From assembly GCF_055900595.2 (NCBI RefSeq), contig NZ_CM148325.1: 64,000 nt of DNA; one strand, 5' to 3'. The notes beneath the pieces were generated by a model, which was not told where the DNA came from, did not search any database, and worked only from the letters and a program-made list of their open reading frames with translations. Each line of letters opens with the position of its first letter. Position 1 is the stretch's first letter. Position numbers and translations under genes: made by a program. Positions 6,517 to 53,062 of this stretch are shown here, in pieces.

Positions 6517-6689
6517 CAAGTTCTTTTGCGTTGCATTGCTGGCGTAAATGTCAGCAATGCAGCATTTCCTCACGATTCTCCTTTGACGATCGCACTTTTT
6601 GCTCGTTATGATGGCGTTGCTAGCCTCAGTAAATCCTTACTCCGGCGGTGCGCAACCTGTGCGCGTGAACCACTATCTGAATGCTCATC

Positions 6690-7622
6690 ATGCCGAAATT
6701 TCGAGTTTCTTTATTTAGCCTGGCCCTGATGCTGGCTGTGCCTTTTGCACCGCAGGCCGTTGCGAAAACGGCAGCCGCTACCACCGCTTCACAGCCGGAA
6801 ATTGCCTCCGGTAGCGCGATGATTGTTGATCTGAATACCAACAAAGTGATCTATTCGAACCACCCGGATTTGGTGCGTCCGATTGCGTCTATCAGTAAAT
6901 TAATGACCGCGATGGTTGTGCTGGATGCACGATTGCCGCTGGATGAAAAACTGAAAGTGGATATCAGCCAGACGCCGGAGATGAAAGGGGTCTATTCGCG
7001 CGTACGACTGAACAGCGAAATCAGCCGTAAAGATATGCTGTTGCTGGCGCTGATGTCTTCAGAAAACCGCGCGGCGGCAAGCCTTGCGCACCATTATCCC
7101 GGTGGTTACAAAGCCTTTATTAAGGCGATGAATGCGAAAGCGAAATCGCTCGGAATGAACAACACGCGCTTTGTTGAACCGACCGGATTGTCGGTGCATA
7201 ACGTTTCAACTGCCCGTGACTTAACCAAACTGCTCATTGCCAGCAAACAATATCCGTTGATTGGTCAGTTAAGTACTACCAGGGAAGATATGGCAACCTT
7301 CTCTAACCCGACGTATACGCTGCCGTTCCGCAATACTAACCATCTGGTGTATCGCGATAACTGGAATATTCAGTTAACCAAAACGGGCTTTACCAATGCG
7401 GCGGGCCATTGTCTGGTGATGCGTACGGTTATCAATAATAAACCGGTAGCGTTGGTGGTGATGGACGCGTTTGGCAAATATACCCATTTTGCCGATGCCA
7501 GCCGCCTGCGTACCTGGATTGAAACCGGTAAAGTGATGCCTGTTCCGGCAGCAGCGTTGAGCTATAAAAAACAAAAAGCCGCCCAGATGGCGGCGGCGGG
7601 GCAGACGGCACAGAACGATTAA
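6690..7622 (+). CDS. pbpG: D-alanyl-D-alanine endopeptidase PBP7
   Basis: 310 aa; signal peptide; SxxK motif (SISKLMT) of class A/C serine peptidases. Confidence 0.9.
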
Positions 7623-7624
7623 GG

Positions 7625-7810
7625 GTAGGCAGGATAAGGCGTTTACGCCGCATCAGGCATTCGGAGCACAATGCCTGATGCGATGCTTGCGCATCTTATC
7701 AGGCCTACAAACGTGACGCGTCCGTAGGCAGGATAAGGCGTTCACGCCGCATCCGGCATTCGGTGCACGATGCCTGATGCGATGCTTCTATTTGCATCAG
7801 GCATCCAGCC
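7625..7810. repeat. BIME/REP cluster between pbpG and dld
   Basis: Several REP units (GCCGCATCAGGC, GCCTGATGCGATGC, TAGGCAGGATAAGGCGTT) in alternating orientation. Confidence 0.75.
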
Positions 7811-7814
7811 GTAT

Positions 7815-9530
7815 TTACTCCACTTCCTGCCAGTTTTTCCGCTTACTGGTTTTACCGATCCCCGGATTCATGCTGTTGGTCGGATCGTTCTCGCGATAGA
7901 ACTTCTGCAACGTCTCCGGTGCTTTATACAAATGACCGACGTTATGCTCGGCAGGGTATTGCGCGCCGCGCTGCTGTAGCAGTTCCAGCATCTGTTCTTT
8001 CAACGCATGCACATCCACGCCTTTTTTAACGATGTAATCCTGATGGAAGACATAGCACATAAAATGGCCGTAATAGAGCTTGTGCACCAACTGACTGTCG
8101 ATCTCCGGCGGTAAATGCTCATACCACTCGGTGTCGTTACGCCGCAGAGCGATATCCAGCGCCAGAATGTCTTCGACTTCATCGGAATGCACCGCCTGAT
8201 AACGAATTGCTGCGCCCGCAGCGGCGAAACGGTGTAAAAACGCTTTGCTGCCTTCCTCCGGCGTACAGACAAAGAAATCGCCCTCGGCCTGTTTGAAATA
8301 ATCCACCAGCCACGATTTTGCTTCACCGACGCCATCGCCCGCCATTTTTAACAGCAGATGATGTTCATATTTATCGCGCCAGTTTTTCATGCGCGGCGGT
8401 AAATGGCTGGGGAACAGGTGACCGAATTTTTGCATCGCACGGTCGGTAAAATGCGGACGGAAGAATTTCACTTTCTCCAGCATCGCATCGGTGCGTCCCT
8501 TGAGATTAAAGAAGAACGGCATCTTGTCGGTGCCTAACTTATCAATCATCAGGAAGGTGTCTTTGCCGTATTTTTCCGCAATATCGTAGATATCCCGGTG
8601 CATATATTCCCCGGCAACCGGCAGATTTTCGAAATTAGCCAGAATATGACGGCGGATTTCGGTCAGTACTTCCGGCTGGTTGGTGCCGATATAAAACACC
8701 TGCTGATTTTTTTCTGCTTCGAAGGTATCAAGACGTACCGCAAAGACGGCCAGTTTACCGGCGCAACCGGAGGATTCAAACAGGCGATCCGGGTCGGCGT
8801 TATAACGTGCTGGTGTGTCGGCTTCAATATCACGAACGCGGTGGACATAGTCATAATCGTGGGCGTGACGACCATCGTGGCGCACATCGTCATCTTTGAT
8901 GCGATCGTCATCCAGCTTGCTAAGGATCTGCTCCGGCGTTTCGCCGAGATCAATCCCCAGATGGTTCACCAGCGTCAGTTTGCCGTCTTCATTTATACGC
9001 GCGAATAACGACATTTCGGTATACGCCGGGCCACGCTGTACCAGCGAGCCGCCGGAGTTGTTACAAATACCGCCGATGACTGATGCGCCTATACACGATG
9101 ATCCAATCACTGAGTGCGGTTCGCGTCCCAGCGGTTTGAGAGCTTTTTCCAGCGAATAGAGTGTGGTGCCAGGATATGCCAGCACCTGTTCGCCCTTGCC
9201 GAGAACATGTAGTTTGTCGAGACGCAGGGTGCTGATGATCACGATATCGCGATCATAGTCGTTACCGTTTGGCGTCGAGCCTTCGGTCAGGCCGGTATTA
9301 GCGGCTTGCATCAGAATAATTTTGTCGGCGGTGACGCAGGCTTTCAGCACCCGCCACAATTCCAGTAGTGAGCCAGGGAAAACGACAGCCAGCGCGTCGC
9401 CCTGACCAGAACGGAAGCCCTTGCGATAGCGGGCCGTTTTTGCGGGATCGGTGAGCAGGTGTGAATGACCGACCAGACGGGCAAGTTCATTCAAAAAGGC
9501 TTTATTATCAGTTGTTGTCATGGAAGACAT
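7815..9530 (-). CDS. dld: FAD-dependent D-lactate dehydrogenase
   Basis: 571 aa from MSSMTTTDNKAFLNELARLVG...; length matches K-12 Dld; ORF-track start trimmed from 9563. Confidence 0.92.
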   Translation of the reverse strand: MSSMTTTDNKAFLNELARLVGHSHLLTDPAKTARYRKGFRSGQGDALAVVFPGSLLELWRVLKACVTADKIILMQAANTGLTEGSTPNGNDYDRDIVIISTLRLDKLHVLGKGEQVLAYPGTTLYSLEKALKPLGREPHSVIGSSCIGASVIGGICNNSGGSLVQRGPAYTEMSLFARINEDGKLTLVNHLGIDLGETPEQILSKLDDDRIKDDDVRHDGRHAHDYDYVHRVRDIEADTPARYNADPDRLFESSGCAGKLAVFAVRLDTFEAEKNQQVFYIGTNQPEVLTEIRRHILANFENLPVAGEYMHRDIYDIAEKYGKDTFLMIDKLGTDKMPFFFNLKGRTDAMLEKVKFFRPHFTDRAMQKFGHLFPSHLPPRMKNWRDKYEHHLLLKMAGDGVGEAKSWLVDYFKQAEGDFFVCTPEEGSKAFLHRFAAAGAAIRYQAVHSDEVEDILALDIALRRNDTEWYEHLPPEIDSQLVHKLYYGHFMCYVFHQDYIVKKGVDVHALKEQMLELLQQRGAQYPAEHNVGHLYKAPETLQKFYRENDPTNSMNPGIGKTSKRKNWQEVE

Positions 9531-33667: not shown

Positions 33668-33715
33668 GATTAATAGTGCTATGATTTTTCATGTTCTTGT
33701 TAACCAGGTGTTGCC

Positions 33716-33988
33716 ATGTCTCATACAATCCGTGATAAACAGAAACTGAAAGCGCGTGCCAGTAAGATTCAGGGCCAGGTCGTGGCGCTCAAGAAAATGC
33801 TCGACGAGCCGCACGAATGCGCAGCTGTTCTACAACAGATTGCTGCTATCCGTGGCGCGGTAAACGGCCTGATGCGCGAAGTGATTAAGGGGCATCTGAC
33901 GGAACACATCGTTCACCAGGGGGATGAGCTAAAACGTGAAGAAGATCTGGATGTCGTTCTGAAGGTGCTGGATTCTTATATCAAATGA
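33716..33988 (+). CDS. rcnR: Ni/Co-responsive repressor RcnR (CsoR/RcnR family)
   Basis: 90 aa; conserved H-C-H-H metal-ligand pattern of the family. Confidence 0.92.
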
Positions 33989-34097
33989 AAGTGCCTAATA
34001 TGGCCGTAGTTGAGGCAATAAATAGAGGGACAAGTGACGTTAAGCTGAATTAGAGTAAATGGCGTGAGGACACACGCCATTCGAGGATATAGTTTGA

Positions 34098-34412
34098 TTA
34101 ATTTTCGAAAAATTGCTTCACAGCCCAGCCACCATGACCACCTGGAGTTATGAATGAAACAAAACCTTTGTCATCGACGCTCTGGATTTCTACTGTCATT
34201 GATTCATCTAACACGCGACATTTATTGGATGTAATGAGACTCAGCATAGCCTGTTGGTCATTGTCCTGAATGTAACTGATCATCTCGTAAAAGTCAGTTA
34301 ACTTTTTACAGTTAAATGTACCTTCTTTAAGTGTTGCGCTGTCTCCGTGACTTAGTGCGAATGCATTTGGCATCATTGCCACAAAGATGACGGTAACGAG
34401 TAGTTTTTTCAT
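34098..34412 (-). CDS. Small secreted protein, unknown function (signal peptide, 2 Cys)
   Basis: 104 aa, MKKLLVTVIFVAMMPNAFA signal peptide; low-GC context; function not recognisable by eye. Confidence 0.6.
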   Translation of the reverse strand: MKKLLVTVIFVAMMPNAFALSHGDSATLKEGTFNCKKLTDFYEMISYIQDNDQQAMLSLITSNKCRVLDESMTVEIQSVDDKGFVSFITPGGHGGWAVKQFFEN

Positions 34413-34421
34413 TGTAGCCTC

Positions 34422-34769
34422 TTATAATTCAGAACATTCACTGATGTTGTAAGTGCCTTTTCTACCATCATCGTTTACGAGATGTAGCACGAAGATGATG
34501 GGATTGGCATCAATGAAAGATACAGAGACGTTCCCGCTTTCGGTGCTATACATCTTTGCAATCTGTTTTTCACCAATATATGAAAGATCCCAACTCACTC
34601 CGTTCAAGCTAAAATGCATCTGTTTGCCGTCAATATCGATGGAGGATTGTGCCGTAACGGTTTTCCCATTGCTGCCAATTTGACCCTGCTGAAGAGCATC
34701 ACATTTATAGGAGCTTGCATAAGTAAATAGAGGTAGTAGCAGAAGTGCAGCAAAAATTTTACTCTTCAT
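34422..34769 (-). CDS. Small secreted protein, unknown function (signal peptide, 2 Cys)
   Basis: 115 aa, MKSKIFAALLLLPLFTYASS signal peptide; tandem with the 104-aa ORF 9 bp downstream. Confidence 0.6.
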   Translation of the reverse strand: MKSKIFAALLLLPLFTYASSYKCDALQQGQIGSNGKTVTAQSSIDIDGKQMHFSLNGVSWDLSYIGEKQIAKMYSTESGNVSVSFIDANPIIFVLHLVNDDGRKGTYNISECSEL

Positions 34770-35137
34770 ATTTTCCCTTTGCTTGGATTTGAGTTACCTA
34801 TTTTGGGGTAGTCATTATAAAACTATTAATTAGTAAAATGAACAAGTTTTCATTTGTTTAGTAATGGTATTGTTTAGGTTTGAAATTATTACGTACTTTC
34901 ATAGCAATAGGTTGGATAAACAGCAGTTCAGGGAACAAGTTGCACTATCTACATACTTTCCCGCTTTCCATTGTATGTTAGGTAATAGATAGCCTTTGCC
35001 CGTAAGACTAAAAATATTAGAAATGACTCATTCGAATACCTTCTATTCACCTTAATATAGGTTTGATTATTGTAATCGTTTAATGTGTCTTATGGATTTT
35101 TTCCTACTTTTCATTTGCATAATATAGGGGGCACAGC

Positions 35138-35257
35138 ATGCTCTTGAAATTAATTATTAAGATATTTAAATTTTACAGCACACAACTACTTTTCGTTGTC
35201 TTATGTGTTGAACGTACTTCGAGTATAGGTAGGGTTGTATATATATTGCGTGGGTAG
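35138..35257 (+). CDS. Candidate small hydrophobic peptide (39 aa)
   Basis: ORF MLLKLIIKIFKFYSTQLLFVVLCVERTSSIGRVVYILRG preceded by TAGGGGG about 7 nt upstream; lies in the AT-rich islet; below the ORF-track cutoff; could be spurious. Confidence 0.25.
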   Translation: MLLKLIIKIFKFYSTQLLFVVLCVERTSSIGRVVYILRG

Positions 35258-35822
35258 AGTTAGAATAGAGGAGGCATCATTTATAGAATATTCAAGAACG
35301 TTAACCTGTGATCAATAAATAAAAATATCAAATGGTGTTCAAACATATTTTTCTATGAAAAATCCAGCCATCTATGATGAATTTTTAGATCCATTTTAAT
35401 TAAAGTATGATTATGAACCAATATTTAGCCAAGAATGGTGGTATAGCGCGTATCCAATGACACCGGAAAACGCATCTATGAAGTCCTTGTTTATCTCTAT
35501 AAGAGGAAATCAACACTAATAAAATATAGTGATGTAACACATCGAGCAGGTTGCTCTGATGCTGGTCTTCAACTGTGGCTTAAACAGCTATCAAACTTCG
35601 GTGTTATTGAGATGAAAGAATTATCTTTCTCAACTTTCAATCTCAAAAAGCTAGAGGAAATAGACCTTAATTATTCCACTCTCTAAACTTATCTCTTTAT
35701 TTAAAGTAAAAATGAAAATATTATGGTATCAGCTACGTGGTGGTAACTGGTGTTTATGATCATAGGTACACATATACAGGGAACCCTGGAAAACAAAAGT
35801 AATATATTGATGATTTCGTTTG

Positions 35823-36062
35823 TTATAACTTCGTGGTATCAAGTCCGGCGGCTTTGAGTCGCTCGGTAAGATTTCTCATTTTGCTGAACTCTGTACCAAA
35901 GCTGGCTTTAAGTCCTACACCTTCGCAAAACTCTTTTGCCGTGACGTTTTTAAGATGGTCAGCGTATTTGATCATCTGGAGGTGCATTTCCATCGTTTGG
36001 CTATTTCGTGGTGCGCTGCTAATGGCTTGCTTAATGTTCTCGTAGATCTGGGTTTCTGTCAT
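35823..36062 (-). CDS. Small putative DNA-binding protein (79 aa), unknown family
   Basis: ORF with a GGTGAGA RBS; central helix-turn-helix-like segment (VTAKEFCEGVGLKASFGTEFSKMRNL); AT-rich upstream region with 12-bp direct repeats. Confidence 0.55.
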   Translation of the reverse strand: MTETQIYENIKQAISSAPRNSQTMEMHLQMIKYADHLKNVTAKEFCEGVGLKASFGTEFSKMRNLTERLKAAGLDTTKL

Positions 36063-36269
36063 TTTTTATCTCACCTATCAAATTTAGATAAATAATATAA
36101 ATTAGATAAATAAGATAATCAATAGTTTTTACCATATGAATAATGGATGTGGATTGTTTCTTTTTCATTTCTGATATGGAGTACAAAATGGGGTCACAAT
36201 GAAGAAGCGATGAATGGAGGCGAGCTTGCATCTGCAAGCCTCTTCCCCTAATCTGGCACAAAATATAGA

Positions 36270-36407
36270 GATTCAACCAAACGACTCGGGGTGCCCTTCT
36301 GCGTGAAGGCTGAGAAATACCCGTATCACCTGATCTGGATAATGCCAGCGTAGGGAAGTCACGGACCACCAGGTCATTGCTTCTTCACGTTATGGCAGGA
36401 GCAAACT
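36270..36407 (+). promoter_or_regulatory. TPP (thi-box) riboswitch in the thiM leader
   Basis: Sequence AACCAAACGACTCGGGGTGCCCTTCTGCGTGAAGGCTGAGAAATACCCGTATCACCTGATCTGGATAATGCCAGCGTAGGGAAGTC... matches the E. coli thiM aptamer and expression platform; the anti-SD region overlaps the thiM RBS. Confidence 0.9.
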
Positions 36408-37196
36408 ATGCAAGTCGACCTGCTGAGTTCCGCGCAATCTGCGCACGCGTTACACCTTTTTCACCAACATTCCCCTCTTGTGCATTGCATGACCAATGAT
36501 GTGGTGCAAACCTTTACTGCCAATACCTTGCTGGCGCTCGGTGCATCGCCAGCGATGGTTATCGAAACCGAAGAAGCCAGTCAGTTTGCGGCTATCGCCA
36601 GTGCCTTGCTAATTAACGTCGGCACGCTGACGCAGCCACGCGCACAGGCGATGCGTGCTGCCGTTGAACAGGCAACACACTCTCAAACCCCCTGGACGCT
36701 TGATCCGGTCGCGGTTGGCGCACTCGATTATCGTCGCCGTTTTTGTCATGAACTTTTATCTTTTAAACCGGCAGCGATACGTGGTAATGCTTCGGAAATC
36801 ATGGCATTAGCTGGCGTTGCTAATGGTGGACGGGGAGTGGACACCACTGACGCCGCAGCTAATGCGATACCCGCTGCACAAACACTGGCACGGGAAACTG
36901 GCGCAATCGTCGTGGTCACAGGCGAGGTGGATTATGTTACCGATGGTCGTCGCACCGTTGGCATTCACGGCGGCAATCCGTTAATGACCAAAGTGGTAGG
37001 AACTGGCTGTGCATTATCGGCAGTTGTCGCTGCCTGTTGTGCATTACCTGGCGATATGCTGGAAAATATCGCATCTGCCTGTCACTGGATGAAACAAGCC
37101 GGAGAACGCGCCGTCGCCAGAAGTGAAGGGCCTGGCAGTTTTGTTCCCCATTTTCTTGATGCGCTCTGGCAATTGACGCAGGAGGTGCAGGCGTGA
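36408..37196 (+). CDS. thiM: Hydroxyethylthiazole kinase
   Basis: 262 aa; 4-bp overlap with thiD. Confidence 0.92.
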
Positions 37197-37993
37197 AACG
37201 AATTAACGCTCTGACAATTGCAGGCACTGATCCCAGTGGTGGCGCAGGAATTCAGGCAGATCTCAAAACGTTCTCGGCACTTGGCGCTTATGGTTGCTCA
37301 GTGATTACTGCACTGGTGGCGCAAAATACCCGTGGCGTACAGTCGGTGTATCGCATTGAGCCTGATTTTGTCGCCGCCCAGCTCGATTCGGTGTTCAGCG
37401 ATGTGCGAATCGATACCACTAAAATCGGTATGTTGGCGGAAACTGATATTGTTGAAGCGGTGGCAGAACGGTTGCAACGTTATCAGATCCAAAACGTGGT
37501 GCTCGACACCGTTATGCTGGCAAAAAGCGGCGACCCGCTGCTTTCACCTTCGGCGGTTGCTACGCTGCGCAGTCGATTATTGCCACAGGTTTCATTAATA
37601 ACGCCAAACTTGCCCGAAGCAGCCGCCTTGCTCGACGCGCCACACGCGCGCAACGAACAGGAAATGCTGGAACAAGGGCGATCGCTGTTGGCGATGGGCT
37701 GTGGCGCAGTGCTAATGAAAGGTGGTCATCTGGATGATGAGCAAAGCCCGGACTGGCTGTTTACCCGCGAGGGTGAACAACGGTTTACCGCACCGCGCAT
37801 TATGACCCAAAACACCCACGGCACTGGTTGTACGCTCTCTGCGGCGTTGGCTGCACTGCGCCCGCGCCATACAAACTGGGCTGACACCGTACAGGAGGCA
37901 AAAAGCTGGCTTTCATCGGCATTAGCCCAGGCCGACACGCTGGAAGTTGGTCACGGTATTGGTCCGGTTCACCACTTCCACGCCTGGTGGTGA
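37193..37993 (+). CDS. thiD: Hydroxymethylpyrimidine/phosphomethylpyrimidine kinase
   Basis: 266 aa; GTG start; ribokinase-like fold. Confidence 0.92.
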
Positions 37994-52891: not shown

Positions 52892-52978
52892 AAAAAATAA
52901 GCCCGTGTAAGGGAGATTACACAGGCTAAGGAGGTGGTTCCTGGTACAGCTAGCATTTTATGGGTTATGTTTTTCAGC
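52892..52978 (-). ncRNA. cyaR: CyaR (RyeE) Hfq-dependent sRNA
   Basis: Minus-strand sequence GCTGAAAAACATAACCCATAAAATGCTAGCTGTACCAGGAACCACCTCCTTAGCCTGTGTAATCTCCCTTACACGGGCTTATTTTTT matches CyaR as I remember it, including the terminator hairpin and U-tail; located just downstream of yegQ as in K-12. Confidence 0.85.
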
Positions 52979-53062
52979 GGAACGGATGATAACCTTAATA
53001 ACTGCAGCTGTATGTGATCGGTTTCTAAGAATTTTCCATCCGGGAAAAATAATCGAAATTAA

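Follow-up and report, generated by a model that had tools for sequence, protein, structure and literature searches.

A thiM TPP riboswitch that probably doubles as the attachment site of a decayed integrase island in Escherichia coli

The window analyzed here, a stretch of 64,000 nucleotides (nt) from contig NZ_CM148325.1 of the RefSeq assembly GCF_055900595.2, carries the Escherichia coli genes rcnR, thiM and thiD, with a thiamine pyrophosphate (TPP) riboswitch in front of thiM and an AT-rich islet between rcnR and this riboswitch. A first-pass annotation, made from the letters alone, had recorded the riboswitch as intact and had suggested that the promoter of thiM may be provided or modified by islet DNA. 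From comparisons with the K-12 strain and with related islands, we propose, with a probability of about 0.8, that the riboswitch doubles as the attR attachment site of a decayed member of a riboswitch-targeting island family, and that thiM is likely transcribed from a promoter that belongs to the island.

The thiM riboswitch and the islet that adjoins it

When the whole window was scanned with cmscan against Rfam 15, a full-length match to the TPP family RF00059 was found on the + strand (model positions 1-105, E = 5.1e-12), with a score above the gathering score of the family (Table 1). The aligned sequence has the conserved architecture of the aptamer, with P1, a pyrimidine-sensor arm containing CUGAGA and a pyrophosphate-sensor arm containing ACCUGAUCUGGAUAAUGCCAGCG; two pairs are non-canonical, one that closes P1 on its outer side and one in the variable P3 stem. 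From 36274 to 36425, the window and K-12 are base-for-base identical, a span that covers the aptamer, the expression platform, the thiM ATG at 36408 and the first thiM codons. The match ends 34 nt before this ATG, and the anti-Shine-Dalgarno (anti-SD) and Shine-Dalgarno (SD) segments are those of the characterized K-12 platform, in which G142 of the thiM ribosome binding site and U152 of the start codon (K-12 numbering, PMC5499598) correspond to window 36399 and 36409. In K-12, the thiM riboswitch binds TPP and represses in a ligand-dependent manner, through translational control and Rho-dependent termination within thiM codons 20-34 (Bastet et al. 2017, PMC5499598). The canonical TPP riboswitch of E. 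coli thiM occupies window 36277-36407, and the description given by the first-pass annotation, of an intact aptamer and platform within 36270-36407 with an anti-SD segment near the thiM ribosome binding site, was confirmed by the Rfam scan and by the identity with K-12. Such a riboswitch is real, correctly named and already known: it is a textbook case, annotated as 'TPP riboswitch' in the RefSeq record of strain Z0117EC0005 (a complete genome that is 100% identical over window 33700-36700), and it adds nothing new by itself. It should operate as in K-12 even in a leader with a different 5' end, since the sequence that it needs is unchanged.

Upstream of this identical segment, similarity to K-12 is lost until rcnR is reached. 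A base-by-base comparison showed that it stops at the rcnR stop codon (33986-33988; TGA in the window and TAA in K-12), that no K-12 sequence lies within 33989-36273 and that similarity returns at 36274, which is 3 nt 5' of the Rfam match and 9 nt 5' of P1 (GACUC, 36283). The islet had been thought to end about 100-200 base pairs (bp) upstream of the riboswitch, and this estimate did not hold, as it directly abuts the aptamer. In K-12, 91 nt separate rcnR from the riboswitch, and the islet stands in place of the 88-bp K-12 rcnR-thiM intergenic region that includes the native thiM promoter. The K-12 start site is found at ATG-150, because PMC5499598 numbers the U of the start codon as 152, and this position is mutually consistent with the K-12 promoter TTTACA-17-TACCAT, since it falls 7 nt after the match; its equivalent in the window is 36258. 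As K-12 similarity resumes only at 36274, the -35 and -10 elements, the start site and the first 16 nt of the leader, including its 5' hairpin, are therefore all absent from the window, where island DNA replaces them. The suggestion that islet DNA supplies the thiM promoter is thus supported more strongly than it had been worded, and which sequence probably serves as the promoter is considered below.

At the other side of the islet, the last 15 nt of rcnR contain 2 differences from K-12. Also at the 3' coding end of rcnR, positions 33931-33942 (AACGTGAAGAAG) are complementary at 12/12 positions to the anti-SD segment 36380-36391 (CTTCTTCACGTT), in K-12 as in the window; this may be a coding coincidence, and it may be relevant only to rcnR read-through transcripts.

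Related islands and their attachment sites

Other E. coli strains carry different DNA at the same rcnR-thiM place. Intact islands of 5-14 kb were examined in five E. coli strains and one Atlantibacter strain (Table 1), and 6/6 sit between two annotated TPP riboswitch copies. These islands share one order: rcnR, the native promoter, riboswitch copy 1, a tyrosine integrase, a variable cargo, a backbone (resolvase, two small open reading frames (ORFs), HTH_36, DUF6998 and HTH_73), a constant module, riboswitch copy 2 and thiM. Their cargo includes SIR2, TIR, AIPR, HNH, HigB, ImmA/IrrE, DEAD/DEAH helicase and restriction genes, and one integrase-less variant (GF3-3 type) has NACHT and RelA/SpoT genes. 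The integrases of N25 and GPEC548 share 78% identity, both match Pfam Phage_integrase, and the N25 one matches phrog_1 too.

An alignment of attB, attL and attR sequences showed that attL consists of the native promoter and of the aptamer up to ...GCGTAGGG, followed by island DNA, and that attR consists of the island module, of the aptamer from GACTC on and then of the native 3' strand of P1, the platform and thiM. The identity block that is present at both island ends (Table 1) is extended by 9 nt on its 5' side (CAACCAAAC, 36274-36282) in N25 and in the window lineage, where the att repeat reaches 82 bp, and the attL copy of PEC389 matches window 36274-36355 at 100% identity. Rfam scores of the attR copies range from 71.2 to 74.0 bits, with 71.2 bits for the thiM-proximal copy of N25, equal to the window copy, and the attL copies, whose P1 is broken, still score above threshold (61.3-63.1 bits). 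At attL, the integrase start codon is located ~66 nt past the aptamer copy, behind the native thiM promoter (L090 8667-8829, L091 12158-12321 and L095 1220-1383), and a small GGCC...GGCC hairpin is found just past the junction in GPEC548 and Atlantibacter. A Tn7-like end, considered from repeated GGTACAAA motifs, was dropped as tyrosine integrases and duplicated aptamers turned up. In 80 species representatives, a pattern search of the 6 kb in front of thiM for a second aptamer copy returned none; it missed the Atlantibacter attL by one base difference, and this copy was found by eye. No circle or attP of the island lineage itself was found.

Differences between native and island aptamer copies are located in the P3 loop (GC vs TT or AC) and, in Atlantibacter, at the position equivalent to window 36320. 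They all lie left of the exchange, so that the crossover would take place within ~36321-36355, in the P4/P5 stem-loop. A viral contig (L094 5876-5918; IMG/VR UViG_2531839180_000003) combines phage packaging genes, a 71%-identical integrase and 41 nt of aptamer sequence that correspond to window 36313-36353 with 1 mismatch, and this contig gave no match to the TPP model. Its junction looks like an attP with a shorter core, and the imperfect inverted repeat CCTGATCTGG-ATAAT-GCCAGCGTAGG may represent the core site. An element of the L094 type with such a short core would split the aptamer upon integration, leaving thiM without the 5' half of the aptamer.

The islet of the window contains the same backbone genes, in the same order, as the PEC389 island, and window 34052-34855 is 75.8% identical to PEC389 7465-8267. 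Its 104-amino acid (aa) ORF is 78% identical to a Citrobacter island ORF, and its 115-aa ORF is 85% identical to one of Citrobacter MGH106 and 39-42% identical to the resolvase-adjoining ORF of N25, GPEC548, A23 and MRE162. Within the decayed stretch that follows, blastn detected homology between 35381-35700 and the 3' end of the HTH_36 gene plus an 81-aa ORF of the N25 island, and copies of the HTH_73 gene that are 94-95% identical to that of the window adjoin the riboswitch in N25, BL21-AI, A23, MRE162 and Atlantibacter. This HTH_73 gene was rejected as a marker of the same integrase on plasmids, as the copy of pX14-3-NDM adjoins an unrelated tyrosine integrase and tblastn gave no match to the island integrase there. 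Closer to the riboswitch, the direct repeats TGGAGTACAAAA and TGGGGTCACAA, of which GPEC548 and BL21 have three copies, are putative arm-type sites for the integrase; GGTACAAAAAGGGG occurs beside the integrase start at attL too, as seen when the Atlantibacter attL and attR are aligned.

Compared with an intact island, the window is without the native intergenic region, riboswitch copy 1, integrase, cargo and resolvase. No integrase was found between rcnR and thiM in the window, whereas one is present in the six related intact islands, and the window element is therefore a remnant rather than a functional member of the family. The TPP match is also the only one in the window, such that attR alone appears to survive, and a search for flanking direct repeats within the window yielded only chance-level short repeats, presumably because attL was deleted. 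The contact between islet and aptamer would then be no accident, since these comparisons identify the riboswitch as the attachment site of the island family from which the islet descends.

A conserved module with a candidate thiM promoter

All variants have a constant segment of 50-100 bp directly 5' of the riboswitch, which aligns as TTGCA...GCAAGC..CTTCCCCTAA.CT.GCA.AAA.TATAGAGATTCAA. Between GPEC548 and other genera, this module is 79-95% identical, while in the same pairs thiM is 68-70% and the platform 68-78% identical, so that identity falls off where the att block ends. As judged from these alignments, the module and the 5' part of the aptamer at attR are of island origin.

Within the proximal 250 bp, the best candidate promoter on the + strand of the window is TTGCAT-17-TAATCT (7.06 bits with a crude matrix), which keeps TTG and TA...T and matches the sigma-70 consensus at 6/12 positions. 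The pattern TTGnnn-17-TAnnCT is held in one register in 26/26 sequences from at least 12 genera, and the spacer carries low information (0.68 bit per column in 12 divergent sequences). In GF3-3, the shared sequence starts at the TTGCAT hexamer itself: all that lies upstream is replaced and the module is kept. We consider that TTGCAT-17-TAATCT is probably the thiM promoter in the window strain. Transcription would then start near 36261, giving a leader of ~147 nt, almost as long as that of K-12 (150 nt) and predicted to fold like it, minus the K-12 5' hairpin GCGAU-UUAUC-AUCGC. By its consensus, such a promoter would be weaker than that of K-12, and it appears embedded in a palindrome near AT-rich DNA.

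Some other properties of this region were noted. In the -10 element (36249-36255 and homologous positions in L003-L080), position 5 is a C in 26/26 modules (TAnnCT), off the sigma-70 consensus, and a G follows in most of them; toward its 3' end, the spacer is rich in C and T (CTTCCCC). The GC hairpin at 36224-36239 was rejected as an intrinsic terminator, since it has no T-run on either strand and the terminator scan was empty. On inspection, TGGCAC (36254-36259) has no GC element at the right spacing for a sigma-54 -24 element, and a sigma-32-like CTTGCA-N14-CCCCTAAT was set aside because its CCCC run is not conserved in divergent sequences.

Altogether, these observations are consistent with the following scenario. 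Islands of a tyrosine-integrase family would integrate into the aptamer, with a core at ~36313-36353. The island end that lies far from the integrase would carry a thiM-type promoter and a copy of the 5' three-quarters of the aptamer, so that thiM would keep a complete riboswitch behind an island promoter after integration (attR), while the host promoter and an aptamer copy without the 3' strand of P1 would come to lie before the integrase (attL). In the window strain, a later deletion may have taken out the integrase, the cargo and the resolvase together with attL and the native thiM promoter, leaving two backbone ORFs, the HTH_73 gene and attR. With its native promoter lost, thiMD would be transcribed from island DNA, most likely from TTGCAT-17-TAATCT. 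Binding of TPP to the aptamer would then favor the pairing of the anti-SD with the SD, block thiM translation and allow Rho termination early in thiM. Since the integrase would be expressed behind the host thiM promoter and a P1-truncated TPP aptamer, or behind the thiM-type promoter of the island once excised, one may also speculate that integration and excision respond to thiamine status, an idea that we hold to be rather doubtful.

Table 1. Features of the rcnR-thiD region of the window and sizes of the intact islands used for comparison
Feature	Position or size	Strand	Description and basis
rcnR	33716..33988	+	Stop codon is the left limit of K-12 similarity; ORF list, annotation of the identical strain, K-12 comparison
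AT-rich islet	33989..36273	.	GC 0.30-0.42; probable decayed right arm of an integrase island; composition profile, K-12 comparison, PEC389 match
104-aa ORF	34098..34412	-	Signal-peptide-like N-terminus; island backbone gene adjoining the resolvase in intact islands; phrog_33226, function unknown
115-aa ORF	34422..34769	-	Signal-peptide-like N-terminus; island backbone gene; phrog_35183, function unknown
Decayed stretch	34770..35822	.	~1 kb with no ORF of at least 50 aa
HTH_73 gene, 79 aa	35823..36062	-	Pfam PF24718, E = 6.5e-31; last right-arm gene in most island variants
Promoter-like site TTGATT-17-TATATT	36094..36122	-	Faces the HTH_73 gene; sole match of the consensus scan in 35700-36450
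Direct repeats TGGAGTACAAAA and TGGGGTCACAA	36177..36199	+	Putative integrase arm-type sites; alignments
Palindrome GCTTGC-ATCT-GCAAGC	36224..36239	.	Overlaps the -35 hexamer; other variants keep the arms and have a different central 4 nt
Candidate island-borne thiM promoter	36226..36254	+	-35 TTGCAT 36226-36231, 17-nt spacer, -10 TAATCT 36249-36254
Predicted transcription start	36259..36263	+	~7 nt past the -10; promoter geometry and K-12 numbering
TPP aptamer RF00059	36277..36373	+	71.2 bits vs threshold of 54.3 bits
att identity block GACTC...GTAGGG, 73 bp	36283..36355	+	5' strand of P1 through P5; present at both ends of intact islands
Minimal shared core, likely crossover region	36313..36353	+	P4/P5 stem-loop; viral contig match and att polymorphisms
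Expression platform	36374..36407	+	anti-SD CUUCUUCACG 36380-36389; SD AGGAG 36397-36401; identical to K-12
thiM	36408..37196	+	262 aa, intact; ORF list and annotation of the identical strain
thiD	37193..37993	+	266 aa, intact; 4-nt overlap with thiM
E. coli N25 island	8.5 kb		
E. coli GPEC548 island	12 kb		
E. coli A23 island	13.6 kb		
E. coli MRE162 island	11.2 kb		
E. coli PEC389 island	10.9 kb		
Atlantibacter hermannii island	5.2 kb		

Elsewhere in the window, the Rfam scan gave further above-threshold matches to STnc490 (458-581, 146.4 bits), Peptidase-S11 RNA (6605-6685, 73.6 bits), two naRNA4 or REP-like elements (7628-7705, 76.9 bits; 44228-44298, 60.0 bits) and CyaR (52895-52980, minus strand, 99.8 bits). 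Downstream of thiD, yegX (38058-38876) has an in-frame stop at codon 132 (38451-38453) and is annotated as intact in Z0117EC0005, whose sequence agrees with the window at every base of 33700-36700; the strain of the window may be another one, or the nonsense mutation may be private to it.

Distribution, alternative readings and meaning

Our genome survey covered 5426 complete E. coli genomes. The uninterrupted K-12-type site, with 91 nt between rcnR and the riboswitch, is found in K-12 and in ~90% of them, and the K-12-type thiM promoter or site is present in 6/6 representatives of Escherichia species and in many other genera too. Islets of the window type occur in 339 genomes, including O157:H7 (97% identity), module-like sequences (window 36125-36275) in 565 genomes, single-copy in all but one and chromosomal in all but one, and the integrase in 222, where it is always chromosomal. 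Outside E. coli, the module is sporadic in Citrobacter, Lelliottia, Pluralibacter, Enterobacter, Pseudescherichia and Atlantibacter, and a plasmid search with the module gave a single record, of 438 kb, in which the whole chromosomal region is present. In E. coli BL21-AI (B lineage; L007 2669-7100), an IS1 adjoins an island remnant, with yehA-D, rcnB, rcnA and rcnR missing, and thiM retains the island module together with the HTH_73 and DUF6998 genes. A record titled Chryseobacterium sp. 18061 (L059) contains an enterobacterial thiM locus with the island module and a ThiM 73% identical to that of E. coli, and this record is probably mislabelled or contaminated.

Several points weigh against the proposal that the riboswitch is the attR of a decayed island behind an island promoter. 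The window has neither an integrase nor an attL, so that its history is drawn from relatives, and its aptamer is identical to that of K-12, so that island-derived bases cannot be told apart. Excision and integration are likewise deduced from the architecture of junctions. The candidate promoter scores below that of K-12 (10.82 bits with the same matrix), scores such as its own arise ~2.75 times per kb by chance, and a strict consensus scan did not report it; the support for it is comparative, and the 26 sequences include many close relatives. Finally, the window type and the GF3-3 type (L008 2247-2250) are unrelated variants, and both have their left junction exactly at the rcnR stop, which would not be expected from a simple random deletion. 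It may be conjectured that the already-deleted arrangement was gained by homologous recombination from a diverged donor, which would fit the 2 differences at the 3' end of rcnR.

Other readings of the locus were weighed against the same evidence. Transcription of thiM may begin farther upstream, from an AT-rich promoter at ~36070-36190 or by read-through, in a longer leader whose segment 36200-36213 (TGAAGAAGCGATGA) would pair with 36374-36387 and change or abolish TPP control. These two segments are indeed complementary at 13/14 positions, an RNA that starts at 36190 is predicted to form a long-range helix around the aptamer, the corresponding segment is complementary at 12-13/15 positions in other island variants, and weaker promoter-like sites exist at 36070-36200. 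However, none of these sites is conserved, GF3-3 has lost everything upstream of TTGCAT while keeping the module, the conserved TTG-17-TAnnCT register points to a start site 3' of 36254 and the adjacent gene is transcribed away from thiM, which together make a long leader unlikely.

The riboswitch could also be intact in front of an operon that is weak or silent, if a weak promoter lies near AT-rich and probably H-NS-bound DNA and if thiMD salvage is under relaxed selection. The low GC content of the flanking DNA and the deficit of the candidate promoter, ~3.8 bits relative to that of K-12, would fit such a state, but the records of O157:H7 and Z0117EC0005 that were examined have full-length thiM and thiD genes, as does the window, and the conservation of the module across genera suggests that it is used, so that we find a silent operon improbable.

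Alternatively, no site-specific integration would have taken place: the rcnR-thiM interval would be a hotspot for homologous recombination through its flanks, and selection would have maintained the module as a divergent allele of the native thiM promoter. Junctions placed exactly at the rcnR stop and the differences in the last codons of rcnR are in line with this hypothesis, TTGC-17-TAnnCT promoters are native in some genera (as at the Atlantibacter attL), and most carriers are without an integrase (565 genomes with the module vs 222 with the integrase), such that window-like remnants could well have spread in this way. We find this hypothesis very improbable, as six islands are bounded by duplicated aptamers with a tyrosine integrase directly inside attL, as the module is far more conserved across genera than thiM, as a viral contig has an attP-like junction and as TIGER islands with the target TPP_RNA have been catalogued. 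The last possibility, that the islet is an unrelated insertion farther upstream and that the native thiM promoter survives in a K-12-like context between islet and riboswitch, had only the 100-200 bp estimate of the first-pass annotation in its favor and is refuted by the lack of K-12 sequence in 33989-36273, where a local alignment search for K-12 intergenic or promoter remnants across the 2.29-kb islet found none (score of 17-20 vs a shuffle mean of 20.6).

The proposed attR within a riboswitch has parallels in better-known elements. Among these are integrase islands with tRNA or tmRNA genes as their targets, which bring along a copy of the part of the gene that they displace (Williams 2002, as cited in PMC10121019; Islander/TIGER, PMC7192596). 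The thiM islands resemble these by their terminal tyrosine integrase, by a direct repeat that is part of a conserved structured RNA, by a variable and often defensive cargo and by common integrase-less remnants, and in both cases the element supplies a replacement copy, so that the target would stay functional. They differ in that their target is a cis-regulatory mRNA leader instead of a stable RNA gene, and entry from the 5' side obliges a thiM island to supply a promoter in addition to the RNA segment. This promoter-bringing entry resembles that of dusA-targeting islands.

Two islands from the supplement of Mageeney et al. 2020 (PMC7192596), 'Eco824.15.TPP_RNA' of E. coli (~15 kb) and 'Kox2.11.TPP_RNA' of Klebsiella oxytoca (~11 kb), have names that denote an attB in a TPP riboswitch. 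Judging from these names, they are probably of the same family as the thiM islands; they appear as names in a list, and the main text of PMC7192596 is silent on riboswitches. In the supplement of Hochhauser et al. 2023 (PMC10121019), a 7,956-bp 'rcnR-thiM' defence island with a type IV restriction system is listed for E. coli 789, a strain that carries the island integrase as well (H85). That island occupies the same chromosomal position, and it is given there with the mobile-element type 'None', outside the 41 numbered hotspots and with no mention of a riboswitch attachment site. In the library that we searched for a riboswitch as attB or attachment site, we found these supplement entries and no paper discussing it. 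The window would therefore have a known riboswitch that also serves as attR for a decayed island, from a class that is catalogued but undescribed.

If so, the O157:H7-type islet should be re-read as the stump of an integrase island with the aptamer as its attachment site, and not as a random AT-rich insertion. The locus would also provide a worked example of a cis-regulatory RNA used as an island target, with the island giving back a promoter and an RNA segment, where earlier records held only the 'TPP_RNA' label and an unclassified 'rcnR-thiM' island. With SIR2, TIR, AIPR, NACHT and restriction genes as the cargo of its intact relatives, the site can be seen as a small defence-island locus with a defined mobilization mechanism. 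About one tenth of complete E. coli genomes either lack the textbook thiM promoter or have it displaced to the front of an integrase, and K-12 promoter and leader data are therefore not transferable to these strains. If our proposal is true, ~10% of E. coli, including O157:H7, would express thiMD from a promoter of island origin, whose strength and regulation are its own.

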